Virus record (IMG/VR): IMGVR_UViG_3300047558_000238
Coordinates: 32,001 to 96,000 of that record
From: a virus
Direction: 5' to 3' (one strand)
Length of the DNA: 64,000 nt
Shown here: positions 21,657-52,811 of the stretch, in pieces
Numbering within the stretch: position 1 is the stretch's first letter
Layout: every line of letters starts with the position of its first letter
Notes under the pieces: generated by a model
The model's database searches: none
What the model saw: only the letters and a program-made list of their open reading frames with translations
What the model was told of the DNA's origin: nothing
Made by a program: the position numbers and the translations under genes

Positions 21657-21923
21657 TTATAGCTCTTTTGGCGCTGTGCCCCAGTGGCCGATTGGGCAGT
21701 AGGCATTAGGTAGCTTAGTTTTTAGATTCATAAAACAGCCGCACTTCCTGCACTGCTTGCTGATCTTAAATAAAAATGGGCACTGTAAACATATCGACAT
21801 GCGCTCTTCAGCTACTTCATCAGATACTCTACCTACCTCAGAGTCTAGTAGGTCCCATGGCTTTGCGCTTTTTCTTAGCTCTTCTGGGCTCGGTAGCGGT
21901 GGGATCTCAGGTAGTTGGCTCAT
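21657..21923 (-). CDS. Small Cys-rich protein (DUF6171-like)
   Basis: 'RMSICLQCP..QCRKCGCFM..KTKL..AYCPIGHW'. Confidence 0.7.
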   Translation of the reverse strand: MSQLPEIPPLPSPEELRKSAKPWDLLDSEVGRVSDEVAEERMSICLQCPFLFKISKQCRKCGCFMNLKTKLPNAYCPIGHWGTAPKEL

Positions 21924-22260
21924 TGTCTATAAACTTTCCGTCTATATATCTAGATCCTATTTTAGCAGTAGCTGTAGTATCATCAACTAGAACAAATGTT
22001 GGCTGTGCCAAAAATATATCTGCTAGAGAGTCCTGGGCTCTTAGGATATCATAAACTTCACCATCTAGAACCATTGCAATGGTATGTACCGATGGTCCGC
22101 TTAGGTTCTTCTTCTGTTCCAGTGAGTACTGACTCTCTGTGCCGCTGCCATGGCTGTGTTGATGTTCCTTCGAAAAAGTATTTTTTAGCTTCTGCAGGAA
22201 TGATACTTGACTGGCTAATCCAGCCTGCTTTGGGGTAGGTATCTTATGTCTTGGCTTCAT
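21907..22260 (-). CDS. Hypothetical protein, paralog of 22954-23187
   Basis: TAATG-coupled start; 'IAMVLDGEVYDILRAQDSLADIFLAQPTFVLVD'. Confidence 0.6.
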   Translation of the reverse strand: MKPRHKIPTPKQAGLASQVSFLQKLKNTFSKEHQHSHGSGTESQYSLEQKKNLSGPSVHTIAMVLDGEVYDILRAQDSLADIFLAQPTFVLVDDTTATAKIGSRYIDGKFIDNEPTT

Positions 22261-22949
22261 TAGTCGTACTTTTTTCTGTGCCACATGGTGCGCTTATAGT
22301 TAAAGTCTTTTGTTCGTGCTAGATAAGCAAAGTAGCCTAAGTTTCTAAGGGCCTTGCTGCTAGCTGAGCGTATCTGCATTTTCCAGTCGTAGCGCTTGAT
22401 AGGGATCAACTGGGCTATAGGAGTTCCTTTAGGGATAACCCCTTCAAAATCTTCTTTTATGAAAAACGGAATGTTGCCAGCGTTAAAAAATACATCTGAA
22501 TCGATGATACCAGAGGTCACGTGGAAAGGTAGATCTTCTCTATTTAGTGGATGGGTCAGTAACACACTGAATCCACGGGGAGCCTTAAAATTCCAGAAAC
22601 CTGTAAATGCGAGATGGTTTGGCGCGAATCCTGGCAGTCTAGGCATTGTCTCGCCTAGTGCTGCTGGACGTTCGTTAATTATTTGACCAAGAGGGTTTTC
22701 CGGGTATGAAAAAAATATGTTTCCATCTTTTTTAGAGACTTCAATATCAAAAGGAATAGTTAACACATATCCGGTAATCATCGCATCTAAAAAAGGCATA
22801 CACTGTTTAAGTCCAGCTGATTTTTCACCTGTAGCGGTTAAAAAATGGCTTTCTGCAGACTTATACCACCCGGGTAGCGCTCTTTTAGTAGGTACTGGTC
22901 TTCCGTATTCAACTAAGTCTTTAGCGATAAAAAACTTTAGAAGTTTCAT
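22260..22949 (-). CDS. DUF6065-like protein, paralog of 33839-34570
   Basis: 'LPGWYK..KQCMPFLDAM..GY..HPLNR.DLPF..SGIIDSD..PFF..IPKGTPIAQLIP.KR..W'. Confidence 0.65.
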   Translation of the reverse strand: MKLLKFFIAKDLVEYGRPVPTKRALPGWYKSAESHFLTATGEKSAGLKQCMPFLDAMITGYVLTIPFDIEVSKKDGNIFFSYPENPLGQIINERPAALGETMPRLPGFAPNHLAFTGFWNFKAPRGFSVLLTHPLNREDLPFHVTSGIIDSDVFFNAGNIPFFIKEDFEGVIPKGTPIAQLIPIKRYDWKMQIRSASSKALRNLGYFAYLARTKDFNYKRTMWHRKKYD

Positions 22950-22953
22950 AAAC

Positions 22954-23187
22954 CTATGGCTTGCTGAAAGTTCCAGTAACTGGGTCGTAAATGTCGCCAG
23001 CCTCCACTGGGTCGTTAACATCTACCTGAATAAATGTTGGCTGGCCACTAAAGACCGAAGCAAGTTGAGCATCTGTTCGCATTCTTTGGTAGACAACATT
23101 ATTGATAATTAGTGCAAAACCATATTCGTTTGCGCTCTGCTGAGGCTGGCCTGGCGATTCTAGAGGCGGAATGCTTGGTAAAGTCAT
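22954..23187 (-). CDS. Hypothetical protein, paralog of 21907-22260
   Basis: 'FALIINNVVYQRMRTDAQLASVFSGQPTFIQVD'. Confidence 0.6.
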   Translation of the reverse strand: MTLPSIPPLESPGQPQQSANEYGFALIINNVVYQRMRTDAQLASVFSGQPTFIQVDVNDPVEAGDIYDPVTGTFSKP

Positions 23188-23188
23188 T

Positions 23189-23998
23189 TTAGTTCCTATC
23201 TATTGATATCTTATTAATTGTACTACCCTGGCCGTATGAGCTAGGGCTGATTGCTAATCCAAATCGTTTTGTTTTTGTTGGATTGTCTGCTGCATAAGTT
23301 AGGTCAGAGCCAATTTGGCTAGAAAAATTGTAGTCAGAGTAAGCTTGAATCGTAATAACATTATTTGAAGTTTTTACTCTAAATGCCGAGATTAACGTAG
23401 ATACAGCCTGAGACCACATGACGGATATCGAACCGGATACTGACTTAAGTATTCTCAGATACTGGGGGTAGCAGGTGCTACATGAAGTTCCAGAGCAGGT
23501 GCTACATGAAGTTCCAGAGCAGGTTTGACAAGTAGTTGTTGTGCCCCCGCCGGTATAGTAGATGCAATAGAAGCCAGTCCAAAATCCGCAGGTAGGTGCA
23601 GTATAGGAGTCAACACAGTTGCAACTATATGAGTAGTTGTAGCAGTTGCAACTATATGAGTAGTTGTAGCAGTTGCAACTTTCTGCTTGACTATATTTTT
23701 GTACCCCCCACCAACTATTGGATTCAGTCACCCAGAGGGAGACCATGGCCCCTTGATCTGGAGCGGCTAGTTCTACAGATACATTTTCTACGCCCATGTC
23801 TGTAGTCATCATTGGATATGTTCCAGCACCAGTAACTGTAGTCAGCTTATTGCTTACAATGCTAAATGTTCCTGCTGCTATATCCCATTTGCTGCCATCA
23901 GTAGCAACTCCAGGACTGTTTGTTATGTCAGCTCTAGTGAAAGTATCAACAAACTTTTTTCTTACAGCTTGAGCTTTGATGCCTATTGACGGTCTCAC
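23189..23998 (-). CDS. Putative fibre-tip protein with Cys/Tyr/Thr-rich repeat insert
   Basis: GTG overlaps the upstream TAG; beta-rich body interrupted by 'SCNCYNYSYSCNCYNYSYSCNC...TCQTCSGTSCSTCSGTSCSTC'. Confidence 0.6.
   Translation of the reverse strand: MRPSIGIKAQAVRKKFVDTFTRADITNSPGVATDGSKWDIAAGTFSIVSNKLTTVTGAGTYPMMTTDMGVENVSVELAAPDQGAMVSLWVTESNSWWGVQKYSQAESCNCYNYSYSCNCYNYSYSCNCVDSYTAPTCGFWTGFYCIYYTGGGTTTTCQTCSGTSCSTCSGTSCSTCYPQYLRILKSVSGSISVMWSQAVSTLISAFRVKTSNNVITIQAYSDYNFSSQIGSDLTYAADNPTKTKRFGLAISPSSYGQGSTINKISIDRN
23471..23680. repeat. Two exact in-frame tandem duplications (24 bp and 27 bp)
   Basis: GCAGGTGCTACATGAAGTTCCAGA x2 (23471-23518); CAGTTGCAACTATATGAGTAGTTGTAG x2 plus partial (23616-23680). 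Confidence 0.9.
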
Positions 23999-24714
23999 TA
24001 TGCCACCGTATCCCCAAACAATACCCACAAGTCAGTGCCGCGCTTGTAAAGCGTAGCGGATGACCACTGAGCACGCAGTTTATTTCCAGGAGTATAGTTT
24101 AGGGTTACACCAGCACCCGGTGACACGGTAACTTGACCTGCTCCAGTTTGCATAATTGATATCGTTGATCCAACTGCTATAGCAGCTGAAGAATTAGGCG
24201 GAACTGTGACAGTTATTGCAGCCGAGTTGTTTAACTCGATAAAGTAGGCAACATCGCCTGCAACTAAAGTATATGAAGTTCCAGTTTGGTTGTTTACTGG
24301 ATAAGTAAGTGAGGCTTTAGAGTTCAACTGTGTCTGTATCGGTGAGGTTACACCGCTAGCGTAGTTTAGCTCAGTGGTGGTTACAGTTGCGCCATCTAGA
24401 ATGTTAAGTTCTGCTGCTGTTGCCGTAACTCCCTCTACACCGGGGCCTGTCGGTCCAATCGGTCCTTGAATTCCGTCTGCTCCTGCTGGTCCAGTTGGTC
24501 CCATTGGGCCAGCTGCTCCATCTGCACCTGGTAGCCCATCGGCACCAGGTAGCCCGTCAGCACCCGTGGCACCAGTGGGTCCAGTTGGTCCGGTAGGGCC
24601 AACCACCATAGCTGTATTTGATGCCTTCCAGAAGGTGCCATTCCATGTCCAAGACTGGTCACCTAAAACATACGTCTGCCCTACAGTAGGGGTGTTAGGG
24701 AAATTGATTGGCAT
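23998..24714 (-). CDS. Short collagen-like fibre with C-terminal beta domain
   Basis: '[20 protein letters not shown]'; Gly-X-Y tract; C-terminus paralogous to 39172-41793. Confidence 0.8.
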
Positions 24715-26291: not shown

Positions 26292-29200
26292 CTACGCGAA
26301 CTTAGCTTGGCTAGCTAGAACAGTAAATGTGTTAGTAGCTGTCTTAATAATAGTGTAGGTGTACATGTCAATAGAGCTAGCGTTTCCGCTAGAAGGAGCA
26401 GTTCCACCTACCCATTTAGGGGTCACAGCCGTTCCATCGATTTGGTACGACGTTGGGTAGTATGGGGTAGTTCCGTTTGTAATCAGTAGTGCGCATGTCA
26501 CTGACTGATTTACTGACATAAATGCATCCAGGCTTGTGGCACCATCGTAATAGAAGTTAACTATTCCGTTGCCAGCTGCCGCTACAGTGTAGAACTGAAC
26601 TGCACCATCTACTAACTTAAATGCACCTCCAGCAAATCCAGTAGCTGTTGCATATACGCCTTCCTTGGTTTGTGAAGTCAGCACTGGGCTAATGAGTGTC
26701 TTATTAGATAGCGTCTGCGTTCCAGGAATTGTTACATATGTAGATGTGTCTGGAGCAGGGCCAGTTGCACCAGTAGGTCCAATTGGACCTTGAATACCTT
26801 GAACACCCTGAGGGCCTGCAGGGCCAGTGTCTCCAGTTGCACCAGTTAAACCCTGAACACCTTGAGCACCAGTTGCTCCAGTTGCTCCAGTTGGGCCGGT
26901 CGGGCCCATATCTCCGGCAACAGCTTCTGCCCAGAAGCCGTCGATATATGTGAGTAGAGTTCCAGTCGCGGTGTCGACCCATACGTCTCCTACGGAAGGC
27001 GATGTCGGGGCTACGTCTGAAACATAGAATTTACCGTCTGCACCTGTAGGACCAGTTGGTCCATCTAGTCCGTCGATACCGGCCGCGCCAGTAGGCCCAG
27101 TAGGGCCAGTTGCTCCTTGAACTCCAGTTGCACCAGTTGGACCTGTCGGACCAGTTGGGCCAATAGCACCAGCACTAATGGTTGTCCTAACGTTTGATGC
27201 CTTACCGTCTTCAAAATAGATGGTGGTAGTGCTATTAGAGTTTCCATATCCAGTAGGTCGGATTGCATAGTACTTAAAGACAAGTCTGTCAGTCAAATCA
27301 ATTGATGCTGCAACTGATCGTACATACTGATAAGAAATCTCTTCAATGGTAGTGTTGCTGTGCAGTTCAGAGTCTACAGTTGAAAGTAGAGTCTCGCTCC
27401 CTCCGCTAGGTCCGCACTTATAGACTTCAGTGCGGAACTTAACACTGCCAGAGTCTACAAGCATGTGTAGGGAGTTGACTCCGATTCCTGTTGGAATATT
27501 AGTCACACCAGGAACTCCGACTGGAGTGGCAAATGCTCCAATTAGGTATGGAGTATCTGCCAGAGATAGCTGAATAGTGTAGCTAGTAAGCGCATTTACT
27601 GAAGGGCTTTCACCTGCAATAAAGTATCCAGTTAGGTCAGAGGTATCAGTTCTATTTAGATAGAAAGTTCTACCAGCTGCACCACCCTGAGGTCCTGTCG
27701 GTCCAGTGGCACCAGTCGGTCCGGTCGGGCCAACTACCTGAGAGTTAGTCCAGACGCCAGTAGCCGAGTTATATCTAAGAACGTCACCATCAACTAGAGT
27801 GCTTAGATTTACATCGTGAAGCTCGTCTAGCTCTAGACCATTGGCTACCTTTACATAGATAGACCCGGTTGTGGCTGATTTACGGACTAGGACACCAACC
27901 ATAACCCCATGAGCTGGAGCTTCTGGCCGCTGAGTAGTCATGGTTCCAGCAGTTTCTGATAGCCAAAGGACTGCACCTTCGCTATAGTTACTAACTATTC
28001 CACCGAATCCAACATAGTTAGATGTATCTATGTCTCTAACTAGACCATTAAGGGTCACATATCCTTCACCAGCCACTGCAATATCTTCTGTAGCGATACC
28101 AACAGTAGCTGTAGACTGCAACTCGGTAGAGGCGTCTGCCAAAATAACTTCTGGTCTAGTGCCATTTGCGCCACTAAGAGCGACAACTGACCCATTGGTG
28201 ATAGTTGACCCGGTAGCGTTGTAGACCTTCATCACGAACTCTTGGCCAACCTGGAGGGTTACGTTGTTACCGCCAAGACGAAGGTTTAGCGTACCATCAG
28301 CCTCGTTCCAGGCTAGCTCGCCTGGATTCGAGACACCGTTAACATACGTGGTGTCAAATCCCAGCTTGTCTAGTCCAGAGATTGAAGTTATTTCGGTAAC
28401 AGCTCCGGATGGCATAGGCCCTGTTGCACCAGTTGCACCAGTTGGTCCAGTTGGTCCAGCAACAGTCGAAGCTGCACCAGTCGGTCCAGTCGCACCAGTC
28501 GGACCAGTTGGTCCAGTCGCACCATCAGCGCCAATGTATCCATCTGCACCCTGAGGACCAGTCGCTCCGGTTGGGCCAGTCGGACCTTCTACACCTTGAG
28601 CACCAGTTGGGCCAGTTGGGCCTACCGGTCCAACAGAACCAGTAGGACCAGTCGGACCATCTACACCCTGAATTCCAGGGACACCTTGAATACCAGCAAT
28701 ACCCTGAGCACCGGTAGGGCCTGTTGCTCCGGTAGGACCAGCCAAAGTGCCTGAGTCGACCCAGGATAGTGTTGTCTCTGACCAGATATATAGAACACCA
28801 CCAGCGATGCTTGCATCGCCTGGAGTTCCAGTAGGGTGCGCTGCAATGAGCTCTGCATAAGTGTTATGAGCGTCAATGATCTGAATACCTTGACCCTGCG
28901 CACCAGTTGGGCCTGTCGGACCCTGAGCTCCAGTTGCACCTGTCGGTCCAATATTCCCCTGAACACCCTGAGCACCAGTAGCACCCGTTGGTCCAGTAAC
29001 CCCTTGGGTTCCAGTTAGGCCTTGAGGCCCCTGAGCTCCCGTCGCACCAGTTGGACCGGCAATACCTTGAATACCTTGAGGACCTGTTGCACCAGTTGGG
29101 CCCTGGACACCTTGAGCGCCAGTTGCACCAGTTGGTCCAGTGACCATCGATGGGGCACCAGTCGGACCGGTTGGACCCTGAGCTCCTGTTGCACCAGTTG

Positions 29201-30623
29201 GACCAGTTACACCCTGAATTCCTTGGAATCCAGCCACGCCCTGAGGCCCCTGAGGGCCAGTAGGTCCAGTTGGTCCCTGTAAGTTTCCATTAGCTTCCCA
29301 GGCTAGGTTGTCCTGAGACCAGATGTAGATTGTACCGTTTACAACGTGCACGTCTCCGACGTTACCAATTGGGTGATCAGTGACAAGCTCTTGGTACGTA
29401 GCATAGGAGTCTAGAATAGTTAGGCTTTGACCCATTGGCCCTGTTGCACCAGTTGGTCCAGTTATACCTTGTACACCTGCGGCACCAGTTGCACCTGTAG
29501 GGCCTGTAGGGCCTTGAATACCCTGTAAACCAGTAAGACCCTGAGCTCCCTGGGCACCAGTTGCACCAGTTGCACCAGTTGCACCAGTAGCTCCAGTTGC
29601 ACCGGTTGGTCCAGCTGGACCCTGCGTACCTTGAGCACCAGTTGGGCCAGTAACACCTGCTGGTCCTTGAAGACCGCTTGCTCCAGTAGGGCCAGTTGGC
29701 CCTACGGAACCAGTTGCACCAGTGGCACCAGTTGCACCCTGAGTTCCAGTAAGACCCTGAGGGCCAGTTGCACCGGTAGCTCCAGTAGCACCTGTTGGCC
29801 CCTGGATACCCTGTGTACCAGTAGGGCCTGTTGCTCCGATGGGACCCGTTGCTCCAGTAGGGCCTTGAATGCCCTGTGCACCCTGAGCTCCAGTCGGTCC
29901 GGTTGCTCCAGTAAGACCTGCTGAACCAGTAGCACCTGTTGCACCAGTTGGTCCAGTAGCTCCAGCAGACCCTGCAATACCCTGAGGACCAGTAGCTCCA
30001 GTCGGACCAGTCGACCCGGTTAGTCCTTGAATACCTTGAGGACCAGTTGCACCTGTTGCTCCTGTTGCACCAGTTGGACCAGTTACACCCTGAATTCCTT
30101 GCTCGCCCTGAGGACCAGTAGCACCAGTTGCACCCTGAGTTCCAGTAAGACCCTGAGGGCCTGTAGCACCAGTAGGACCCTGAGGGCCAGTAGAACCAGT
30201 AGCTCCGGTTGGCCCTGCTTGCCCTTGAATACCTTGAATACCCTGCGCACCAGTAGGACCAGTTGCCCCTTGAGCTCCTGTTGCGCCAGTAGCTCCAGTA
30301 GCGCCCGTTGCACCAGTTGCACCAGCTGCACCAGTTGCACCTGGTGTTCCTTGAATACCAGTTAGACCCTGTGGTCCAGTTGGGCCCTGGATACCTTGAG
30401 GACCAGTTGCGCCAGTAGGGCCTGGAATAGTACTAGCTGCACCAGTAGCACCAGTTGCACCAGTTGCACCAGTTGCACCAGTTGCACCAGTAGGACCAGT
30501 AGATCCTGGAGCGCCTGTAGGGCCAGTTGGCCCTCCCGCAGGGCCAGCAGGGCCAGTAGGTCCAGCAGGGCCTTGAGCCCCTACGCCCTTAACTTCTAGA
30601 TACGCAAAGTCATCTGAAAACAT
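26292..30623 (-). CDS. Large collagen-like fibre protein (1443 aa)
   Basis: Long Gly-X-Y tracts ([12 protein letters not shown]) interrupted by globular domains. Confidence 0.9.
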
Positions 30624-30982
30624 TAGTAAGTAATCTCCGCTCTAACGGTAAACTTTCCAGCAATAAATTTAGTAACGTCTCCGTCAGGGCTTTCAAGTTC
30701 TATATCATATGTGTAGATGCCAGCTGCTAGTGCCTCAGTTTGAGCTGGAGTAAGTAGAACTTCAACTTTTCCGGTGAGCGGCTCTATCACTAGACTTCTA
30801 GTTCCAGTAACTAGTGAGAGCGCAATCTCGGAGCTATTGGCTGAAGTTCTTATCTGCATTCGACCGGAGTACCCAGTCAAGTTGATAGGAGTCTTAGTAG
30901 ATGTCTTAAGAATTAAGACGCGATTCAGTGTAGCACCTTGATCGGCTATTATATCATAGTAATTGTTCGTTGCGCAATACAC
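30623..30982 (-). CDS. Putative fibre anchor/adaptor, paralog of 44428-44787
   Basis: '[11 protein letters not shown]...[14 protein letters not shown]...YTYDIEL...[10 protein letters not shown]'. Confidence 0.65.
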
Positions 30983-31038: not shown

Positions 31039-31638
31039 CTAGTTGCTTAGCCTTTTAATCCAGAAAGCTGGCGACATGTATTTAACTCCTGAGACTACCG
31101 GAGTCGACCTGTGATAGTAGGGCTCTACAGATGGGAAGACCACAATACTTCCAGCTTCTGGCTTTATTTTTATATCGAACTCAGTGAAATGTAGCTCGCC
31201 GCCGTCCATATCGTCATTTAGGTAGATAACAGCTGACATTATTGGCTCTAAATGCGGCTCCCCGTGGTAGTCAACGTGAGGGCCCATCTCTGCTCCGCTA
31301 ATGTATTTAGAGATACTTATAGGCGCTGGGTCGATATAGTCTATGCCATTCTTTTTGGCATAATCTCTTCCCGCCTCGGTTAAAGCGGTTTTTAGATTTA
31401 GATATATTGACTTGACGCTATCAGAGCTGGTGCTTAGTTTAGATTCATCAGTAAATTTTTGCTGACCAAATACGTAAGGCTCTCCATCGCCAGAAGCCAA
31501 CCATTGATGCCATTTTTGTATAGCATCGTTGGTAGTCAGATTAGCATCTGTTGTCTCGATGAGCTCTATGATCTTTTCTGGGCTCTCTACAATACCCTTG
31601 TAGTAGTAAATTTTGTCAGCAAAAATCTCGGGGTTCAT
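31039..31638 (-). CDS. 2OG-Fe(II) oxygenase (prolyl-hydroxylase-like)
   Basis: HxD 'HVD', 'YLNDDMDGGEL', distal H 'YYH', 'KY'. Confidence 0.9.
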   Translation of the reverse strand: MNPEIFADKIYYYKGIVESPEKIIELIETTDANLTTNDAIQKWHQWLASGDGEPYVFGQQKFTDESKLSTSSDSVKSIYLNLKTALTEAGRDYAKKNGIDYIDPAPISISKYISGAEMGPHVDYHGEPHLEPIMSAVIYLNDDMDGGELHFTEFDIKIKPEAGSIVVFPSVEPYYHRSTPVVSGVKYMSPAFWIKRLSN

Positions 31639-32372
31639 TAGGCGAACTTGTTGCCCTTCTCCCACTCTATTTTCTGCTCGGCCTGTGCCTTACGTACCTC
31701 TTGGATTTCGGCTTCCCAAGCTGCCTTTTTCTCATCAGAGTACACGGCATCGGCAAAGTCCCAGAAGGAGACCATGGTATATCTAGTTCCCTTTAGAATC
31801 TCTTTAACTCCGTGAATGTTTTCTATTCCGCCAGGGAAGCAGATGTACGAGTAGGCAGCTGGCTTAAACTCTAGGTTGTGGTCAGGAAAATAAAGCTCTC
31901 CACCCTCGTAATCGTCATTTAAGTACAAGATACCTACATACTTATTAATCTCAAAAGCGTTTGGCGAGCCGTCGAAGTCCGAGTTATCTGAGTGTGGCGC
32001 TGCAAATCCGCCAACATCCCACTTCTGCGCATGCGAAGTATTGGCTACAACTTCACGATCAAATACCAGCTGAATAGCTTCTTTAAACTTTTCACGAAGA
32101 GTCTCGAAGAAGCGTGGAGGCAAGTCGTAGTCAGCTAGCTTCGGGTCATCAGGGTGAATGCCCATACCGGATGATCCGTAGAAGGCAATATCACCCCACG
32201 AAGAAGAATATGACTCTATGTAGTTGATGATGTTTCTTGCGGTATCTGGAGAGACAAAGTTAGCAATCTCTACGATACGGTTCTGAGGGATACCTAGCTC
32301 CCCGATGGCGTTGGGCTCATCTTTATAGACGATGAACTCTTCTGGCTGTAGGTTTTCAATAATCAATGACAT
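31638..32372 (-). CDS. 2OG-Fe(II) oxygenase
   Basis: 'HSD', 'YLNDDYEGGEL', 'HGV', 'RY'. Confidence 0.9.
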   Translation of the reverse strand: MSLIIENLQPEEFIVYKDEPNAIGELGIPQNRIVEIANFVSPDTARNIINYIESYSSSWGDIAFYGSSGMGIHPDDPKLADYDLPPRFFETLREKFKEAIQLVFDREVVANTSHAQKWDVGGFAAPHSDNSDFDGSPNAFEINKYVGILYLNDDYEGGELYFPDHNLEFKPAAYSYICFPGGIENIHGVKEILKGTRYTMVSFWDFADAVYSDEKKAAWEAEIQEVRKAQAEQKIEWEKGNKFA

Positions 32373-33142
32373 TAGTGGTCTATACCTTTCAAGTTATATC
32401 GTCCAGAATTACGTTCGACGCGCTCGCGCTCTTTTTCCATCTCGCCCCATACCGTGGGGCCGTACTTTTCCAAACCGTCACGCCACTCCTGAGTGCCCTC
32501 CGAGTAGTACTGCCAGAATGAGCGAACAAAATATTTTTGCCCTGAAGTAGTTTTATTTACTCCATGGTAGTAAGGTGCTCTGGACGGGAACACTAGCACA
32601 TCACCGGCCTGAGGCTTATGAATAAAAAAATCTACATCAGTACCTTCTTCATTCAATACTTTGAAGCAGATCTCTCCGCCTTCATAGTTATCGTTTAGGT
32701 ACATAGTGCATGTCATCACTGGCTTATCGCCAGGAGCATCAGCGCGTTCTTGCTGAAAATCAGTGTGATAGAACATGCCAACATTAGTGTCTGCTCCGCC
32801 ATCAGTTTTATACATGCAAATAGCGGGAGCGCTGAATTTCCAGTTAGGAATCTCTTCGTTGAAGTAGTTATCGTGGTAGTGACTGGTGGCCGTATAAAAA
32901 GCTCCCATAATTTCTTGTGCAGCAGGTACTAGACCCTGGCTCGCAACCATGGTCTCATGCCACTCATCAGCATCAGGAAATTTACTAAATGTATGGTTTC
33001 TAGCCTTTACGGTAGTTAGCTCTCCAAAGGTAAACCACTTAGCCCACTCCGCCGAGTCACGGTAATGCTTAGCTACTTCTTCTGGGTTTTGATATAAACC
33101 TCGGTAGACAACAACATTCGGGTAGAGTTCGATAACTTCCAC
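32372..33142 (-). CDS. 2OG-Fe(II) oxygenase
   Basis: 'HTD', 'YLNDNYEGGEI', 'YHGV', 'KY'; GTG overlaps upstream TAG. Confidence 0.9.
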   Translation of the reverse strand: MEVIELYPNVVVYRGLYQNPEEVAKHYRDSAEWAKWFTFGELTTVKARNHTFSKFPDADEWHETMVASQGLVPAAQEIMGAFYTATSHYHDNYFNEEIPNWKFSAPAICMYKTDGGADTNVGMFYHTDFQQERADAPGDKPVMTCTMYLNDNYEGGEICFKVLNEEGTDVDFFIHKPQAGDVLVFPSRAPYYHGVNKTTSGQKYFVRSFWQYYSEGTQEWRDGLEKYGPTVWGEMEKERERVERNSGRYNLKGIDH

Positions 33143-33822
33143 TAGATACCGCACTGGCTTTCGTGAGATAAGATCGTCCAGAAAAACGGAACAGTGTATC
33201 TAGTACCGGAGGTAATCTGAGTTACTCCGTGAATGTACTCCATGTCTCCAGGGAAGAAGTAAGCAGCACCTGCCTTGGGCTTAAACTGAATCCCCTGATT
33301 TGGGAAGTACAGCTCGCCACCTTCGTAATCGTCGTTCAAGTAGAACAGTCCAGCTAGGTCATAGTAGGGGAAGTCATTTGGCTTACCTCTATCTGCACCT
33401 TGGTGTAGCTCTTTATCTGCGTGAGGCATCTGAAGCTGTCCAGGCAGCCAGCGGACTAAAGCTGGTGAAGTAGGTACCGCGTCTACTTTAAAGAACGCGT
33501 CTACTTCCTTCTTAAGCCGATCAACCATACCGCTGATCACTTCTGGAATCTTTGGATCTACTGCTCGTATGGTGTCATAGGTGGCAACTCGATCTTTCCA
33601 GTAGTCAGAGTCGTAAATTACCGTGCCTTCTTCGTTATAGTGAGTCTCGGTTACATCCCAGGCAGTATTTGATCGAATAAATTTATTAAGAGTCTCTAGC
33701 TCGTACTCTGTCATAAAGTTCTCACGGGTCTGAATGTTTGACGGGCTATTGCCAAAAAATCCAGATGGTGTTATAGAGACTCTATTATTTAGTCTAGAGT
33801 TTGCGTAATCTTCTGGTTCCAT
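33142..33822 (-). CDS. 2OG-Fe(II) oxygenase
   Basis: 'HAD', 'YLNDDYEGGEL', 'HGV', 'RY'; TAAGAT-N6-ATG start. Confidence 0.9.
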   Translation of the reverse strand: MEPEDYANSRLNNRVSITPSGFFGNSPSNIQTRENFMTEYELETLNKFIRSNTAWDVTETHYNEEGTVIYDSDYWKDRVATYDTIRAVDPKIPEVISGMVDRLKKEVDAFFKVDAVPTSPALVRWLPGQLQMPHADKELHQGADRGKPNDFPYYDLAGLFYLNDDYEGGELYFPNQGIQFKPKAGAAYFFPGDMEYIHGVTQITSGTRYTVPFFWTILSHESQCGI

Positions 33823-33838
33823 ATTTTTATCTTACTGT

Positions 33839-34570
33839 CTACTCGTAAACTCGTCTGGTCCAAACTTCTTTTTGGTAGACGCCACCGTCAGGTACACGAT
33901 ATTTTTTACTATTTTCATTGTTACTCATCGCCATCTTCATGTACGAGACATCAGCATCTACTTCTGACTCCCAGTCTTCTCGCTTAAATGGAAGCATCTG
34001 GGCATACGGTGTTCCGGCTGGAATAATTCCGGTAAAGCCTTTTACTACAAAGAATGGCATGGTTCCCGGAAGGTTTACCTTGTCATTGTCGATAATTCCA
34101 CTAGTGGTTAGAAACGGTAGCTCAAAGCGATTGAATGGCTGGGTGTATAGGACGCTGTAGCCTTCAGGGACTGATACGGCCCAGTCTGACCACCATGCGA
34201 AGTGGAACTCGTGGTAGCCCATCGGTGCTTTAAACTGAGGCATTGGTGGTCGGTTCTGGATAAAGTCCTTGTTTTGAGGGTCTAGGACCTTAGCTCTAAT
34301 GGTTCCGTTTTCTTCATAAAACTCGATATCGCATGGTGTTCTATAGACGTATCCAGTACCCATGATGTCAAAAACTGCCGGACAAGCTTTCCAGGTAGGG
34401 ATCTTTCCTCCCACCATCGGGTCCTGCCAGTATTCACCATCTGGCTTTATTGCAAACCTATCAGCTTTTCTATACCACTCTGGGATAGTCTTAATAGTTG
34501 GACGCGGGACAGAGGGGCTATCCTCTGTCAGCCATGGCCTGTTCTTGATGAACTTAATCAGTTGTTTCAA
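33839..34570 (-). CDS. DUF6065-like protein
   Basis: 'IPEWY..KACPAVFD..GY..QPFNRFELPF..SGIIDND..PFF..IPAGTPYAQMLPFKR'. Confidence 0.65.
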   Translation of the reverse strand: MKQLIKFIKNRPWLTEDSPSVPRPTIKTIPEWYRKADRFAIKPDGEYWQDPMVGGKIPTWKACPAVFDIMGTGYVYRTPCDIEFYEENGTIRAKVLDPQNKDFIQNRPPMPQFKAPMGYHEFHFAWWSDWAVSVPEGYSVLYTQPFNRFELPFLTTSGIIDNDKVNLPGTMPFFVVKGFTGIIPAGTPYAQMLPFKREDWESEVDADVSYMKMAMSNNENSKKYRVPDGGVYQKEVWTRRVYE

Positions 34571-35288
34571 TTGTCATTCCTGTCACTGGGCATGTTACTG
34601 TCTTTAGTCTTATTGACTTAGTCTCGTGAGAGCCTAACGAAGTACCATCATAGTTTATGGCGTTTCTATACATCTTCGACCAGTCACCCTTAGAGTTTTT
34701 GGCTTGTGCCGCATCTCCATACTTTCTCAGCTCCTCCCAGTACTCGGGTGGTGGTGGGGTGCTGTCTACTTCTAAAGTGAAGTTGTCTTCTAGCTGACCC
34801 AATGAGATTGGCAGAACTGCTGCTACTGGAGTTCCTGCTGGAATAGTAATCTCTTTGTCTGCTTCGGTTATCTTCCAAGCAACTGGTAGCGGTGCATTAT
34901 AGAAAGACGTGCTAATTAGCGTAGTAAAGCATTGAGTACCAGCTATAAACTGATTCGGAACTGGCATAGTTAGCGTTGTAACATCAGCGTCTGTATGGAA
35001 GATTAGTCCAGTATCGAAACTAACTGTTGCACTGCCTCGATTTGGGTTCGCCCACTCTTCACCTTTGAGAATAGTGACATGGTCTCTGGTCGGATCATCG
35101 ATTCCATCCCAGATAAATGAAATATCTTCAGGGAAAGATATACCCCACCCTAGCCGATTAGTTAGCGACACTGGAAAGCACATGTAGCCATGCTTTTCTG
35201 GCAGTCGATCCATCCAGTCTCTGGTCCCTGGTAATGGTTCGATTTTTACACCGTTATCGTAGGCCTTAACTACACGTATAGTTTTCAC
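34554..35288 (-). CDS. DUF6065 family protein
   Basis: 'RDWMD..HGYMCFPVSLTN.LGW.I.FP.D..F.WDG' matches my recollection of the DUF6065 N-terminus. Confidence 0.65.
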   Translation of the reverse strand: MKTIRVVKAYDNGVKIEPLPGTRDWMDRLPEKHGYMCFPVSLTNRLGWGISFPEDISFIWDGIDDPTRDHVTILKGEEWANPNRGSATVSFDTGLIFHTDADVTTLTMPVPNQFIAGTQCFTTLISTSFYNAPLPVAWKITEADKEITIPAGTPVAAVLPISLGQLEDNFTLEVDSTPPPPEYWEELRKYGDAAQAKNSKGDWSKMYRNAINYDGTSLGSHETKSIRLKTVTCPVTGMTIETTD

Positions 35289-36037
35289 TAGCTTCCGGTT
35301 TCTACCATAAATGACGGCTTGTGGAACTTGTCTGAGTAGTCAAGCATAGTTACCATCGAGTACTTAGTACCAGACTTAACTGGCATAGCTCGGTGTGGGT
35401 ACATAAAGTTTGACGGGAAGATATATAAATCGCCTGCAGTAGCCTTGATGGTTGCATTTTGCAGTCTGAAGTGCAGCTCGCCGCCTTCATAGTCATCATT
35501 AGGGAACGCAACTAGGGACACTACGCAGTTGTAGGAGAAGCCGTGATCGTGGTGCTCCTGAAAGTGCTGTCCTGGACCGTACTTAATGAAGTTAGTTGCT
35601 TCCCAGTAGCGGAGCTCGCCAATGTTATACATCTTTGTGTAGTGGCGGACTGCCTGAAGCTGGCGATAGTGAGTCTCGTCCCAGAGGGCAGCAAGCTTTT
35701 CAGCTGCCTCCGACTTATCGCTTTGAATGTCTGTCTTCTTGTACTTAAAATCAAAGCAGTCGCGATACTCTGGCATCTTTACGCCATATCCGACCAATGC
35801 TTCTTCGTAGTGGTATCGATTAGTCGGGTCTAATAGGACCTCTTCTAGTCTGCTAATGACGTTTACTGAAGACGGTATTACATTTCTATACACCCAGATA
35901 CCAGATCCTGGCGCAACCTCTTCTGCGTGGTCCCAGGTTTTTTCTTCAATCTCGTACCACTTAGTTAGGCGTAGATTGTGGTCTTCAATCTCTCGCTCCA
36001 TTGCTTCAGTTGGCTTACTTACGTGAGAGTTTTGCAT
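35288..36037 (-). CDS. 2OG-Fe(II) oxygenase
   Basis: 'HHD', 'NDDYEGGEL', 'FPSNFMYPH', 'KY'. Confidence 0.9.
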   Translation of the reverse strand: MQNSHVSKPTEAMEREIEDHNLRLTKWYEIEEKTWDHAEEVAPGSGIWVYRNVIPSSVNVISRLEEVLLDPTNRYHYEEALVGYGVKMPEYRDCFDFKYKKTDIQSDKSEAAEKLAALWDETHYRQLQAVRHYTKMYNIGELRYWEATNFIKYGPGQHFQEHHDHGFSYNCVVSLVAFPNDDYEGGELHFRLQNATIKATAGDLYIFPSNFMYPHRAMPVKSGTKYSMVTMLDYSDKFHKPSFMVETGS

Positions 36038-36046
36038 TATTACCTC

Positions 36047-36790
36047 TTAGTACTTGAGCTTGTAGTCTTGAATTATTGGAGACACCTTGTGATTAACATC
36101 TCCGCGATCGTTGTAGTCGGTCATAATAACAACCGCATACTTAGTCCCGCTAATCATGTCCTGAGATGCGTGCTCATAGATATATGTTGACGGGAATACG
36201 ACAATATCTCCTGCCTTAGGCTTAATCGAGAGTCCGTCCATACGGGGGAACCAGATCTCACCACCTTCGTAGTCGTCATTTAAGTAGACGACCACGGAGA
36301 TGGTGCAAACATACGTCGGGCCATGGTCAGCGTGGACCTTAAAGTGGGTGCCAGCACCCTCGTACTTTACAAAATTGAATGCCTCATACGATGCAATGCC
36401 AACACCCCAATAGCGACCGTAGTCGTCTACGCATTGGCGCACTGCCTGAAACACTGCCTCGTGAACGTCGTACAGTTCGGCGTTGTCTTCGTTACGTGGC
36501 CCCAGTCCAGTGGAGTTGATCTTAAAGTCTTGAGCATTCCTTGCATTAAGGTCGACATCTGCAGATGATGTGACCTTAGCTCCATGCCATTTATATCTAC
36601 CGCTGCCGTCAAGCTTACGCTCTAACGTATCGATGTATTGCTGCCCCTGCTCTTTGGTGATTGCACCACTATAAACATTGATGCCTAGAGCTGGGTTAGT
36701 TACGGTAATAGCTGGATTAGTTGAAGCCTGGCGACCAGGCATACGGTGAGATGCGGTCTCTGACCTGTCTTTAGTAAACCAATCGTTCAT
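36047..36790 (-). CDS. 2OG-Fe(II) oxygenase
   Basis: 'HAD', 'YLNDDYEGGEI', 'YEH', 'KY'. Confidence 0.9.
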   Translation of the reverse strand: MNDWFTKDRSETASHRMPGRQASTNPAITVTNPALGINVYSGAITKEQGQQYIDTLERKLDGSGRYKWHGAKVTSSADVDLNARNAQDFKINSTGLGPRNEDNAELYDVHEAVFQAVRQCVDDYGRYWGVGIASYEAFNFVKYEGAGTHFKVHADHGPTYVCTISVVVYLNDDYEGGEIWFPRMDGLSIKPKAGDIVVFPSTYIYEHASQDMISGTKYAVVIMTDYNDRGDVNHKVSPIIQDYKLKY

Positions 36791-36808
36791 ATGGTCTACT
36801 ATACACAA

Positions 36809-37411
36809 CTATTCAGATTTTTGCTGAAGTCTTTCTAGGTATTTTGGGCTCATTAAATATGACTCTGACTCTGTTAATAGCCCCTGGTCTTGTAGCTTAT
36901 ATCCGTAGTCTGGACCTTCGGTGAAATACCAATGATCTTCCGGACAAAAATGAAACATAATAACCTCGACCCTGTTGTTATCTGGGTCAGGCATTTCATT
37001 GCGCCAATGAGAATCATAGCCCCCCATAAATGCTAAAGCTTGTCCCTCGGAGAATATAAACTCCTCGCCCTCGACTACTACCCCCCATGGAGTTCTGGCT
37101 GATAGGCAGTAGTCGATTGTATAGGTGCATGCGTTATTGTCCCTATGCGGGGGTAAGCTAGAGGTCGGCTTATTGTAGTCTAGATAGACAGCATAGGTTG
37201 ACTTAAGATTAGGATCAGAAAATATCTCTCTAGCTGTTGGCTCGATAGCCTTACTAAAGTAGTCATCTAGCTGAGTAAATCTTTTAACTCCTCTATCTTT
37301 TTTGGAGTCTTTCCATGACTTCTTAAAGTCGTCAGAGTCTATTAAAGCTCGAAGCTTTTCATGATCTGCTGCAGAGAAAAGATTATCTAGTAGTTTAGGT
37401 TCAAAGTGCAT
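36809..37411 (-). CDS. Divergent 2OG-Fe(II) oxygenase
   Basis: 'L.PHRDNNACTY', 'G....HWR', 'FHF'. Confidence 0.75.
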   Translation of the reverse strand: MHFEPKLLDNLFSAADHEKLRALIDSDDFKKSWKDSKKDRGVKRFTQLDDYFSKAIEPTAREIFSDPNLKSTYAVYLDYNKPTSSLPPHRDNNACTYTIDYCLSARTPWGVVVEGEEFIFSEGQALAFMGGYDSHWRNEMPDPDNNRVEVIMFHFCPEDHWYFTEGPDYGYKLQDQGLLTESESYLMSPKYLERLQQKSE

Positions 37412-37423
37412 TAGAAGCCGCCT

Positions 37424-38227
37424 CTACTTAAGTCTGACGTAGCCAGGAATATGGTCTGTAAAATCCTCTGCAACAATGTTGCACTGACCACATCCGCCAG
37501 GATTGCATTCATAGTTTGACTCGGGTATTCCGGTCAGTCTTGGGCTGTGGCCTATATGTTCGTAGTATCTAATATCGCCATCTAATTTATACTCAGCCAT
37601 TCGACGATATAGCTCTTCATGATCTTTGTCGTCGTAAGCACTTAGGTCGTACATCCAATGCTCTGGGCTAACAAATAAGACGAACATCAATACTACGTAA
37701 GCATCTTCATCAACGTCTGGGTATGGCGGCCTTGCATGGGTCTGCTGTTGCCCCATAAAAAATACACCGCTGTTTACGGCTTCCTCAAATCGCTCGCCAT
37801 CGACTAGTAGGCCCCAGCTATCTATGCCGTGAGTGTCTATGCATATGTCCATAGTGAACTGAGTTCCTGGCTGATCCATGTGCTCCCAGAGATATGGAGT
37901 TATGCCTTTATATTTTTGATATCTAGCAAACCAGATATTTTTGATTCGAAGTCCCTGCTTTTTCCAATTTTTCTTGGCTAAGTCGTCTAGGTGGTCCCAG
38001 ACCTCCTGCGGCAAATCAATCTCGGTCACCCATCTGCCAGTCATGGTGTGGTATTGCGCTGGATTCTCTAGACTCTCGCTGCCTGGCCCCCAGTTGGCTT
38101 TTTCAGCCAGTGCCAAGTTTATCTCCTCGAGCATATCCTCTGGGAATATGCCCTCTACTTTTTTAGCTGGCTCACCTTCTGGCAGGGGCCACTTTATGTT
38201 TGGGCTGGAGTCAGCTGAAATCGGCAC
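37424..38227 (-). CDS. Divergent 2OG-Fe(II) oxygenase, paralog of 36809-37411
   Basis: 'L.EHMD', 'FMGQQQTHAR'; shared 'WG..V.GE.F' and 'P..HW'. Confidence 0.7.
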   Translation of the reverse strand: MPISADSSPNIKWPLPEGEPAKKVEGIFPEDMLEEINLALAEKANWGPGSESLENPAQYHTMTGRWVTEIDLPQEVWDHLDDLAKKNWKKQGLRIKNIWFARYQKYKGITPYLWEHMDQPGTQFTMDICIDTHGIDSWGLLVDGERFEEAVNSGVFFMGQQQTHARPPYPDVDEDAYVVLMFVLFVSPEHWMYDLSAYDDKDHEELYRRMAEYKLDGDIRYYEHIGHSPRLTGIPESNYECNPGGCGQCNIVAEDFTDHIPGYVRLK

Positions 38228-38240
38228 AATCTCTCCTAAA

Positions 38241-38274
38241 AACTAAAACGGGGGTGGCATGTAACCACCCCCGT
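38241..38274 (-). terminator. Intrinsic terminator between the PPFF-repeat gene and the oxygenase cluster
   Basis: Minus strand ACGGGGGTGG-TTACATG-CCACCCCCGT followed by TTTAGTTTTT. Confidence 0.8.
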
Positions 38275-38289
38275 ATCAGTCTACGCTAG

Positions 38290-39153
38290 CTACTCTTCTT
38301 TCTGAGGCTCTTCGTTCTCTGCATCTAGCTCTCGCTCATCGATCGAGCTCATGCCGAATCTTGGCGGGAAGAACGGGAAGAACGGGAAGAACGGTGGGAA
38401 GAACGGGAAGAACGGTGGGAAGAACGGGAAGAACGGGAAGAACGGTGGGAAGAACGGGAAGAACGGTGGGAAGAACGGGAAGAACGGTGGGAAGAACGGG
38501 AAGTACGGGAAGTACGGGAAGTATGGCGGGAAGAACGGAGGCGTAGTATTCTGAGTAGAATACGCTGACCACAGCGATGTTCCATTAATATTTACTGCTC
38601 TAACTCGGTACTGCTGTGAAGTAGCAGCTTCCTGAGCTACGTTGGCTGCCGTACTTACGGTGTTGCCAGACTTAGCATCAGTACTCTCCCAGTAGTAGAG
38701 AGTTATGTTGCTGCCACCGTTATTTGGGGCGGTCCAAGAGACATAGTCTGTTTGGTCATTAGAGAAGTTTTGAACTACTGGAGCAGCAGGGGCATCCGGG
38801 ACAGTTGTAATCGTTACCGCAGCAGACTCGGTAGAGAAAGCAGAAGCACCACTTGCATTTGAGGCAGATACTGTAAAAGTATATGACCCGTTGGAGTCTA
38901 GACCGCCTACGGTTATCGGTGATGCTGTTCCAGTTGTCCCGGTTGCAGTAGTATCTTCTATGCCAGATTTGTATGCTTTTACAGTATATGAAGTTGCTGG
39001 TGGCGACCCGGCTGGTAGGGTAAACGATACAGACGCAGCGCCGTCGTTGTATGCTCTGTCGGTTGCAACGTTAGTTGCAGACACATTTGTAGGAACAGAA
39101 GGCTGTAAAAAATCATTCTGTTGCTGAGAGTGTCTACCTGCTCTTTTTGACAT
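38290..39153 (-). CDS. FN3-domain putative fibre-tip protein with C-terminal Pro/Phe repeat and acidic tail
   Basis: Two FN3-like domains ('YTFTVSASN', 'VPDAP..VSWTAP..YRVRAVN'), then 62 aa of P(P)FF, then GMSSIDERELDAENEEPQKEE. Confidence 0.8.
   Translation of the reverse strand: MSKRAGRHSQQQNDFLQPSVPTNVSATNVATDRAYNDGAASVSFTLPAGSPPATSYTVKAYKSGIEDTTATGTTGTASPITVGGLDSNGSYTFTVSASNASGASAFSTESAAVTITTVPDAPAAPVVQNFSNDQTDYVSWTAPNNGGSNITLYYWESTDAKSGNTVSTAANVAQEAATSQQYRVRAVNINGTSLWSAYSTQNTTPPFFPPYFPYFPYFPFFPPFFPFFPPFFPFFPPFFPFFPFFPPFFPFFPPFFPFFPFFPPRFGMSSIDERELDAENEEPQKEE
38356..38541 (-). repeat. Coding tandem repeat of 9-bp and 12-bp units (PFF/PPFF), 18 units
   Basis: CCGTTCTTC and CCACCGTTCTTC units; PYF, PPYF and PPRF variants at the ends. 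Confidence 0.95.
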
Positions 39154-45878: not shown

Positions 45879-48961
<3,083 letters not shown>

Positions 48962-48966
48962 TTCCT

Positions 48967-49003
48967 AAAAGAAAGCCCCTCCTTCGGGAGGGGTTTTCTA
49001 TTT
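48967..49003 (+). terminator. Intrinsic terminator (possibly bidirectional)
   Basis: AAAGCCCCTCC-TTCG-GGAGGGGTTTT. Confidence 0.85.
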
Positions 49004-52600: not shown

Positions 52601-52673
52601 TGCCCTATAACTCAATTGGCAGAGTGACGAGCTGTTAACTCGTAAGTTCCTGGTTCGAGTCCAGGTGGGGCAG
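52601..52673 (+). tRNA. tRNA-Asn(GTT)
   Basis: Cloverleaf; anticodon arm ACGAG-CTGTTAA-CTCGT; T arm CCTGG-TTCGAGT-CCAGG. Confidence 0.92.
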
Positions 52674-52676
52674 CGA

Positions 52677-52807: not shown

Positions 52808-52811
52808 ACTT

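Follow-up and report, generated by a model that had tools for sequence, protein, structure and literature searches.

What do the many 2-oxoglutarate (2OG)/Fe(II) oxygenases of aquatic phages act on? Cyanomyoviruses and the lake phages considered here carry up to 13 paralogues per genome, and what these enzymes do has been an open question from 2010 or earlier. The question is raised by a gene module at positions 31,039–39,153 of a 64,000-nucleotide (nt) stretch of viral DNA (the window), which covers positions 32,001–96,000 of the IMG/VR record IMGVR_UViG_3300047558_000238, a record of 107 kb with an estimated completeness of 63%. In this module, a gene encoding two fibronectin type III (FN3) domains and a tract of almost only proline and phenylalanine (the FN3-P/F protein) is followed by ten closely packed genes, eight for oxygenases and two for proteins of the DUF6065 type. 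Sequence comparisons lead us to give about even chances to the reading that the core oxygenases of this cassette hydroxylate the Pro/Phe (P/F) tract of fibre-associated proteins. The module supplies a candidate substrate that can be made synthetically, (PPFFPFF)n, together with a minimal set of enzymes (ox8, ox7, ox4, ox2, duf5 and duf6), so that the question is directly testable.

The FN3-P/F protein and its Pro/Phe tract

All genes of the module are located on the minus strand of the window. The candidate substrate and the gene upstream of it are as follows:

38290..39153, minus strand: FN3-FN3-(PPFF/PFF)n protein of 287 amino acids (aa), the candidate substrate (Pfam fn3, E 1.6e-8)
38356..38541, minus strand: 62-aa Pro/Phe/Tyr tract, aa 205–266 of that protein, defined by composition and codons
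39172..41793, minus strand: 873-aa tail-fibre protein upstream of the FN3-P/F gene (Pfam Mtd_N, E 1e-11; many tail-fibre PHROGs)

The Pfam fn3 match of the 287-aa protein covers aa 35–110 and is followed by a second FN3-like stretch at aa 113–203 (phrog_6977). The tract itself consists of 26 Pro, 32 Phe, 3 Tyr and 1 Arg, and its DNA contains a perfect 51-nt repeat present in 2.4 copies. In almost every related locus, a homologue of the 873-aa fibre protein is encoded ahead of the FN3-P/F gene; in the window, the fibre gene contains about 8.7 copies of a 39-nt (13-aa) repeat at 40490–40828, the product of which is TAELN(I/V)LTG(I/V)TA-like.

The tract is kept in all 122 distinct complete homologues found in IMG/VR, the FN3 parts of which share 45–74% identity. 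A strict pattern detects it in 118 of them, with a median length of 68 aa (range 15–181 aa), and the remaining four carry a degenerate tract, e.g. PPxFF(G/S). Throughout the family the composition is 51.6% Phe, 44.5% Pro and 2.8% Tyr, and only two units are common, PPFF (n = 1137) and PFF (n = 1033). The Pro codons vary (CCA 59%, CCG 28%, CCT 11%), and synonymous codons differ from unit to unit within one tract. Since the amino-acid repeat is kept while synonymous codons vary, the P/F repeat is maintained by selection at the level of the protein. A mere artefact of DNA slippage was also considered as the source of the tract and was rejected, the repeat being kept although synonymous codons differ both among and within relatives.

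P/F tracts also serve as internal linkers in other proteins, of 959, 971 and 1561 aa, and occur in single-FN3 proteins of about 165 aa. The term "tip protein", used in the preliminary description, thus holds only in part, because in the 959- to 1561-aa proteins of relatives the tract is internal. Large multi-domain proteins of virion type with internal P/F linkers are encoded at L161:891-3770, L231:1013-5698 and L228:3566-6481; in the last of these, P/F tracts alternate with Thr-rich linkers between Cys-rich modules, and a Hint domain is found at the end. The hexamer variant PPxFF(G/S), in which PP and FF are constant, is present in L281:4990-6627 and L140:2347-3228, the tract of L281 being about 200 aa long and followed by a Hint-like domain. 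A Protein Atlas search with the tail (aa 200–287) gave nothing usable, and a literature search found no paper on a natural (PFF)n protein, PPFF-type repeats retrieving only cyclic peptides and PR-39.

The oxygenase genes

The ten genes of the cassette, from 37424–38227 down to 31039–31665, are separated by gaps of 0–16 nt or overlap by 1–28 nt. Six of the eight oxygenases are of the prolyl 4-hydroxylase (P4H) type:

37424..38227, minus strand: ox10, divergent 2OG-Fe(II) oxygenase-fold protein, accessory, only in close relatives (invariant H116-x-D118...H164-x-R166)
36809..37411, minus strand: ox9, divergent 2OG-Fe(II) oxygenase-fold protein, accessory (invariant H89-x-D91...H135-x-R137)
36047..36808, minus strand: ox8, P4H-type, core, in nearly all relatives (PF13640, 7.9e-12; orthologue column identity 67%)
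35288..36037, minus strand: ox7, P4H-type, core (PF13640, 1.6e-12; orthologue alignment A4)
33142..33822, minus strand: ox4, P4H-type, core (PF13640, 2.9e-8; orthologue column identity 69%)
32372..33154, minus strand: ox3, P4H-type, copy number variable among relatives (PF13640, 2.3e-9)
31638..32372, minus strand: ox2, P4H-type, core, often duplicated (PF13640, 2.7e-7)
31039..31665, minus strand: ox1, P4H-type, variable (PF13640, 1.1e-12)

The six PF13640 genes score 31.9–49.1 bits against a curated cut-off of 27 (E about 1e-12 to 3e-7). The HxD...H iron triad and the basic 2OG-binding residue are invariant in the alignments of ox7, ox8, ox4, ox9 and ox10 and visible in ox1–ox3, and the core enzymes are separately conserved orthologues with 65–69% mean column identity. 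In sequence-profile searches of the PDB, ox8 matched best to the P4H of Bacillus anthracis (5e-6), ox7 to the same enzyme and to collagen lysyl hydroxylases, and ox4 to prolyl 3-hydroxylase 1, the B. anthracis P4H and PBCV-1 vCPH; E-values for the three ranged from 5e-6 to 3e-2, and a mimivirus lysyl hydroxylase was included among the matches. By these profiles, ox7, ox8 and ox4 belong to the protein-hydroxylase branch and not to that of AlkB or TET.

The divergent pair ox9 and ox10 are paralogues (hhalign 99.4%, E 5e-21), and neither matches PF13640. Their profiles retrieved nothing significant from the PDB, and hhalign detected no relation of ox9 to ox4 or ox8. The AlphaFold (AF2) model of ox9 (predicted local distance difference test score, pLDDT, 88) had 2OG oxygenases exclusively among its best 500 Foldseek matches. 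The double-stranded beta-helix fold is thus modelled for ox9, and is presumed from Pfam for the other oxygenases. A complex prediction that paired the ox8 alignment with 40 residues of the tract returned a score of 0.00 with controls not run, and counts neither for nor against binding.

The anatomy given in the preliminary description (an FN3 protein with a 62-aa Pro/Phe tract containing three Tyr and one Arg, a 21-aa acidic tail, a terminator and ten packed genes) proved correct in every item. Its division of these genes into six P4H-like and two divergent oxygenases and two DUF6065-like genes is borne out by the PF13640 and DUF6065 profiles, the ox9 model and the paralogy, and its expectation of peptidyl hydroxylases agrees with the grouping of ox7, ox8 and ox4 with collagen-type protein hydroxylases. 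Its further ideas, a modified and possibly glycosylated tract displayed as an adhesin, are hypothetical.

Outside the cassette, four further PF13640 oxygenases are encoded near tRNA genes and a canonical dUTPase, and the whole record holds at least 12 2OG-fold oxygenases:

54031–54675, plus strand: extra PF13640 oxygenase
55043–55711, plus strand: extra PF13640 oxygenase
55713–56411, plus strand: extra PF13640 oxygenase
58373–58927, minus strand: extra PF13640 oxygenase

The DUF6065 proteins

The two remaining genes of the cassette stand between ox7 and ox4:

34554..35288, minus strand: duf6, DUF6065 (PF19541), core (Pfam E 1.9e-27; 96.7 bits against a cut-off of 26.6)
33839..34570, minus strand: duf5, DUF6065-related paralogue, core (phrog_7084, 8.5e-33; hhalign to duf6 81%)

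Both proteins match phrog_7084, and duf5 has no Pfam match. Sequence-profile searches of the PDB with duf6 and duf5 gave nothing significant, so that the fold assignment comes from structure prediction. The AF2 model of duf6 (pLDDT 81) resembles dUTPases, with VIA-align Z 10–11 over 112–128 residues, all of the top 12 rows being dUTPases, and a Foldseek probability of 1.00; DUF6065 is thus predicted to have the dUTPase fold. The five catalytic motifs of dUTPases (PF00692) were not found complete, PRSG (motif II) and RGxxGFGSTG (motif V) not being recognisable and the Asp of motif III being lost in duf6. In duf5 only GIIDxD (III-like) and AGTPYAQ (IV-like) are retained, and these align locally with motifs II–III of the phage's own canonical dUTPase, which is encoded at about 57404–57790 of the window; hhalign of a DUF6065-type protein to that dUTPase gave 6.7%.

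The duf5 family comprises 1971 representative clusters at E ≤ 1e-3 among 1.84 billion proteins. A tblastn search of 50,697 phage records with duf5 retrieved haloarchaeal HF1/HF2-like viruses and, apart from these, just one weak match, in cyanophage S-RIM4. The haloarchaeal homologues, with 27–32% identity, occur in about 49 HF1/HF2-like myovirus records, for example in Halorubrum phage HF2 at 48119–49003 (L157). Genes like ox8 and duf5 and a flavin-dependent halogenase-like gene are found together behind a large fibre gene at L289:9304-11559, an arrangement that recalls the array of phage Syn9 discussed below. A literature search found no paper mentioning DUF6065. We regard the DUF6065 proteins as possible general helpers of tip maturation.

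Linkage of tract and cassette

IMG/VR was scanned with the FN3-P/F protein, duf6 and a PPFF-coding DNA pattern, and in the resulting 235 loci open reading frames were called and searched with the window proteins. The same layout was found in more than 100 distinct viral contigs, in the conserved order fibre gene, FN3-P/F gene, ox10 and ox9 (where present), ox8, ox7, duf6, duf5, ox4, ox2 (with variable ox3 and ox1) and further fibre genes. A DUF6065 gene was present in 75/75 loci selected by the FN3 protein that had at least 4.5 kb downstream, and an FN3-P/F gene in 56/56 loci selected by duf6 that had enough DNA upstream, so that the co-occurrence search suggested at the outset for FN3+PPFF proteins and the two enzyme families was positive at every informative locus. 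An oxygenase was found within 1.5 kb in 74 of 76 cases.

The linkage is not confined to one type of protein or genome. The records of L161, L231 and L235, with tracts inside proteins of 959, 1561 and 339 aa, respectively, also hold duf5 and 6–13 PF13640 genes, and in a complete genome of 114 kb a second P/F tract is located 48 kb from the cassette. The complete genomes G002, G006 and G008 possess tract and cassette and no homologue of the primase of the window phage, whereas five closer relatives, serving as a positive control, have such a homologue with 59–69% identity. Conversely, the primase is shared by phage DSL-LC01 and by Microbacterium phage Cece, in which neither a PF13640 gene nor a PPFF-coding pattern is present. 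Because tracts occur in unrelated proteins and with different replication backbones, and because the downstream genes track the cap that ends the tract protein, the linkage of tract and cassette appears to exceed shared ancestry and is independent of the replication backbone.

Neither megablast with the region nor tblastn with the FN3-P/F protein and duf6 found anything in the 50,697 deposited phage records. A scan of bacterial genome contigs with a profile of the duf6 alignment found only nine short contigs (L279–L287, GTDB) in lake metagenome-assembled genomes, binned as Bacteroidota, Acidimicrobiia, Verrucomicrobiota and Alphaproteobacteria; they are probably mis-binned phage DNA, uninformative on the host. 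One of them (L282:1151-4383) carries radical-SAM-like (CxxxCxxC) and IMPDH/GMP-reductase-like genes between an FN3-P/F-Hint gene and the cassette.

The C-terminal cap and the terminator

The tract of the window protein is followed by a short cap, and the gene by a hairpin:

38293..38355, minus strand: 21-aa acidic C-terminal cap, GMSSIDERELDAENEEPQKEE, with 9 acidic and 2 basic residues, the variable position of the family
38274–38248, minus strand: intrinsic terminator-like hairpin after the FN3-P/F gene (11-bp stem with 8 GC pairs, 5-nt loop, T-run)

Among 118 relatives the cap is Cys-rich in 37, a Hint-like domain of about 165 aa in 24, very short in 22, acidic in 9 and of other kinds in 26. 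The domain of about 165 aa begins with a Cys directly after ...PPRF(G) and terminates in VHN; its profile matches the bacterial intein-like domain of PDB 2lwy (E 1.8e-10) and many inteins, and of 15 members of this class, 11, 10 and 6 have matches to Pfam intein/Hint families. The FN3-P/F protein of the window has no Hint domain, recognised by an N-terminal Cys/Ser nucleophile and a C-terminal HN, and ends in the acidic 21-mer instead. Since in 24 of the 118 relatives the tract ends exactly where a self-cleaving Hint domain begins, these sequences suggest that there the cap is cleaved off and the end of the tract exposed; the Hint domains would remove the cap, not release the tract. For the window we infer that the acidic cap is likewise dispensable or removed. 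Its earlier interpretation as a follower or solubility peptide fits the variable, sometimes Hint-bearing C-termini, but a conserved follower was not found in the family.

The genes downstream vary with the cap. An extra 142-aa gene precedes ox8 in 20 of 26 variants with a Cys-rich tail, often together with an 81-aa CxxC gene. A parallel cassette of this kind is present in the window itself:

21657..24028, minus strand: parallel tip cassette of a tip gene and genes for a 77-aa protein, a third DUF6065-type paralogue, a 125-aa protein and an 88-aa CxxC protein
23189–24028, minus strand: Cys/Tyr-rich tip gene, beta-rich with a Cys/Tyr-rich repeat insert
22260–23021, minus strand: third DUF6065-type paralogue (hhalign to the duf5 profile, E 1.2e-36)

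The CxxC protein of this cassette is homologous (E 3e-20) to the product of the inserted gene that accompanies FN3-P/F proteins whose tail is Cys-rich, a second small protein is weakly related, and the 125-aa protein contains an HQHSHG stretch. Because Cys-rich-tail variants and a separate Cys-rich tip share an accessory set, the accessory genes behind a tip gene seem to go with the features of that tip.

A hairpin and T-run comparable to that of the window follow 31 of 96 homologous FN3-P/F genes, the corresponding figure after other genes of the module being 0–1%.

A proposed mechanism and the points against it

In the mechanism that we propose, the FN3-FN3-(PPFF/PFF)n protein would be a fibre-associated structural protein, presumably located in the virion, in which the Pro/Phe tract forms an extended stalk or linker bearing a small exchangeable C-terminal cap. 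The tract would be hydroxylated post-translationally by the core enzymes ox8, ox7, ox4 and ox2, with ox1, ox3, ox9 and ox10 as lineage-specific extras. Position-specific enzymes are suggested because there are several distinct, individually conserved orthologues, and each of these may handle a different site of the two units: a single Pro, the first Pro in PP, the second one, or the beta-carbon of a Phe or Tyr. Hydroxylation could turn an extremely hydrophobic, self-aggregating polymer into a soluble and stiff one, an effect that hydroxyproline (Hyp) has in collagen, in extensins and in synthetic Hyp-Phe-Phe. The two DUF6065 proteins would act as non-oxygenase helpers of tip maturation, that is, as a chaperone, as a scaffold or in a second step, and the cap would be dispensable or removed. 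The terminator may separate a highly expressed substrate gene from enzyme genes expressed at a lower level. A more specific version can be put forward only tentatively, and we consider it rather improbable: the tract as a new fibrous element, in which a natural polymer of the self-assembling Pro-Phe-Phe unit is made into a multiply hydroxylated, stiff aromatic-zipper stalk by position-specific hydroxylases, with one orthologue per distinct Pro or Phe position, DUF6065 holds or derivatises the strands, and the cap (acidic, Cys-rich or Hint) is removed or used to ligate the stalk as the fibre is assembled. This version would, for the first time, assign a substrate and a function to the large 2OG-oxygenase arrays found in aquatic phages.

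If the proposal is true, it would show that phage fibre proteins can be extensively hydroxylated after translation. It would further reveal a natural Pro-Phe polymer, likely with unusual mechanical and adhesive properties relevant to peptide materials, and a new role for the dUTPase fold.

Several observations weigh against hydroxylation of the tract by this cassette. Known P4Hs use X-Pro-Gly, poly-Pro/Ser-Pro or LxxLAP contexts, and we know of none that acts on Phe-Pro-Phe. A terminator stands between the candidate substrate gene and the enzyme genes. The four PF13640 genes among tRNA genes imply that some oxygenases of the phage have no tie to the tract. In L290 and L291, genes of the DUF6065 type follow fibre genes that have Cys/Tyr-rich inserts, in the absence of both oxygenases and P/F tracts, and each haloarchaeal duf5 homologue stands alone, flanked by ribonucleotide reductase and baseplate genes, with a DNA methyltransferase nearby. 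All linked loci share one fibre module, so that the co-occurrence counts are not independent events, and the comparison of backbones rests on few genomes. Finally, phage Syn9 has a related array and a DUF6065-like protein and no PPFF-coding tract anywhere in its genome, the neighbouring genes encoding Gly-rich proteins. Oxygenase clusters independent of PPFF proteins, named beforehand as a finding that would tell against the idea, thus exist at deep divergence, whereas the orthologous core cassette is strictly linked to the tract.

Alternative explanations

The cassette is followed by two fibre genes of its own strand:

30623..30982, minus strand: 119-aa fibre-associated protein preceding the collagen-like fibre (phrog_1084, 3e-28; phrog_3304 'L-shaped tail fiber protein assembly', 1.5e-11)
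26292..30623, minus strand: 1443-aa collagen-like fibre with GPT/GAT/GPQ triplets (Pfam Collagen, 1.5e-98)

It is conceivable, if unlikely, that the oxygenases modify other fibre proteins, chiefly these adjacent collagen-like fibres, or Pro-rich linkers such as that of a TP/EP-rich 789-aa protein, and that the P/F protein is a mere neighbour. The collagen-like fibre is encoded 400 nt past the cassette, and the subclade of the window keeps the order cassette, phrog_1084 gene, collagen fibre. The best PDB relatives of the oxygenases are enzymes of the collagen P4H, prolyl 3-hydroxylase and lysyl hydroxylase types, including the P4H of B. anthracis, the BclA protein of which is a GPT collagen. 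Collagen-like and tail-collar proteins have also been suggested as substrates of linked bacterial dioxygenases (Iyer et al., PMC2938197). Long collagen fibres after the cassette are, however, confined to the window's own subclade; in four more distant records only a protein of about 245 aa with about 45 aa of GXY is found, and no Collagen match was obtained for the complete genome G008, which nonetheless keeps tract and core cassette. The core enzymes are conserved across all subclades; therefore their substrate should be too, and collagen cannot explain the conserved core. Moreover, Pro is placed mainly at X (GPT, GPQ) in the collagen-like fibre, not at the Y position of canonical collagen P4H, and the P/F tract has no Gly, so that an X-Pro-Gly substrate was not found in either. 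Collagen may be an additional substrate in the window subclade, perhaps for the accessory enzymes. The 789-aa protein, the TP/EP-rich linker of which spans about 120 residues, is encoded outside the window (G000:C1:103891-106260, equivalent to window coordinates 71891–74260, minus strand) and is another Pro-rich candidate substrate.

Quite doubtful is the view of the cassette as a tailoring island of the Syn9 type, with a small molecule or peptide metabolite as its product or target, or with an auxiliary metabolic function directed at the proteins or metabolism of the host, that merely sits in a hyperplastic fibre region. The Syn9 array was read as secondary-metabolite biosynthesis by Iyer et al. 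(2010), and Syn9, without a PPFF tract, encodes in gp43 a homologue of duf5. The halogenase-like gene beside the ox8-like and duf5-like genes of L289, the radical-SAM-like insertion of L282 and the four PF13640 genes among tRNA genes point in the same direction. Against this, the cassette includes no nonribosomal peptide synthetase, polyketide synthase or ATP-grasp scaffold builder, and no precursor peptide except the P/F protein; its six core genes hold their order and their place directly behind the P/F gene across 45–74% identity and different backbones; and the Syn9 array, too, follows fibre genes.

Action on nucleotides or DNA, the dUTPase-fold proteins supplying or binding a nucleotide and the oxygenases oxidising bases as in phage DNA hypermodification, is very improbable: the predicted fold of DUF6065, the GIIDxD and AGTPYAQ motifs of duf5, the haloarchaeal homologues adjoining ribonucleotide reductase and DNA methyltransferase and a weak, sub-threshold Tet_JBP match of ox4 would fit it, whereas the PF13640 oxygenases are of the P4H type with protein hydroxylases, not AlkB/TET, as their closest structures, a canonical dUTPase is encoded elsewhere and duf6 has lost the motif III Asp, the third DUF6065 paralogue follows a Cys-rich tip gene without an oxygenase, and the cassette is situated within fibre genes, not in the replication module.

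Genome context and host

The module is set among fibre genes, with the 873-aa Mtd_N fibre and other structural genes upstream and the phrog_1084 gene, the collagen-like fibre and more fibre genes downstream. The replication genes are actinophage-like: in the primase, identity amounts to 61% with the lake metagenome phage DSL-LC01, the predicted host of which is Actinomycetia (PMC10611076), and to about 50% with Microbacterium phages (Cece, 51%). The source is probably a freshwater lake phage infecting actinobacteria. A transfer-messenger RNA with the tag ANSRSAFALAA is encoded at 52962–53307 of the window, and nine tRNA genes are present, the RNA genes occupying 52601–53307 and 57816–59133. 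A GT2 glycosyltransferase with a TPR-like C-terminus (15598–16674, minus strand) shares its strand with the fibre genes, and could act on hydroxylated or Thr-rich fibres.

Comparison with known systems

Hydroxylation of the P/F tract may be compared first with viral and bacterial protein hydroxylases. The P4H of chlorovirus PBCV-1 reportedly hydroxylates the virus's own Pro-rich repeat peptides, as Eriksson and co-workers are said to have described in 1999. Its structure, vCPH (PDB 5c5t), a viral P4H-type enzyme, is among the matches of ox4 and ox9, and by analogy this enzyme may be regarded as the closest functional precedent. It is, however, a single enzyme of a eukaryotic virus acting on hydrophilic repeats, e.g. 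(PAPK)n, whereas here 8–13 paralogues, a Pro/Phe polymer, a tailed phage and DUF6065 partners are involved. The P4H of B. anthracis (3itq, 5hv0) and the lysyl hydroxylases mimivirus L230 and LH3 (6ax6, 6fxk) are the best profile matches of ox7 and ox8, and a GPT/GAT fibre adjoins the cassette; the E-values are modest (5e-6 to 3e-2), and what is conserved as a partner throughout the clade is not collagen but the P/F tract.

Plant extensins and mussel foot proteins are repetitive Pro- and aromatic-rich tracts that are heavily hydroxylated and form rigid, adhesive extracellular rods. They differ from the present tract in being eukaryotic, in their Ser-Pro(n) or Tyr/Lys-rich repeats and in the known later glycosylation or cross-linking. 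[quoted passage not shown] By analogy with these tripeptides, and by no more than analogy, a hydroxylated P/F stalk is physically plausible.

A likeness to clusters for ribosomally synthesised and post-translationally modified peptides (RiPPs) is given by the ribosomal, repeat-bearing substrate gene, the terminator and the row of tailoring enzymes. The label RiPP-like, attached to the module in the preliminary description, is nevertheless too loose, since the substrate is a folded, 287-aa structural protein with two FN3 domains, followed in its family by at least five unrelated classes of tail, and no conserved leader or follower, protease or exporter was found and no released peptide is indicated. 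The bacterial intein-like (BIL/Hint) domains, with N-terminal Cys and C-terminal HN, have their counterpart in 24 of 118 relatives and not in the window's own protein.

The nearest system in gene content is the Syn9 array, for which 10 dioxygenases, 2 halogenases and a dUTPase-fold protein were described and which was read as secondary-metabolite synthesis (Iyer, Abhiman, de Souza, Aravind 2010, PMC2938197). At least five tandem dioxygenases and a dUTPase-fold, conserved-Cys protein behind fibre genes characterise this array (gp41–gp54), which directly follows the tail-fibre genes gp32–gp39, and the window has the equivalent in its eight oxygenases and two DUF6065 proteins; gp43 is homologous to duf5 (hhalign 96%, E 4.6e-9). 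Syn9 differs in its tryptophan halogenases and a JmjC/MINA-type member, for which no Pfam match was found in the window's ten genes, and its oxygenases share only about 30–47% identity with those of the window over the catalytic core. The opinion that no phage system of this kind had been described must accordingly be narrowed to the tract, which Syn9 lacks: the type of array has been known since 2010, from Syn9 and without a substrate, and the novelty here lies in the Pro/Phe polymer and in how strictly it is linked to an orthologous core cassette.

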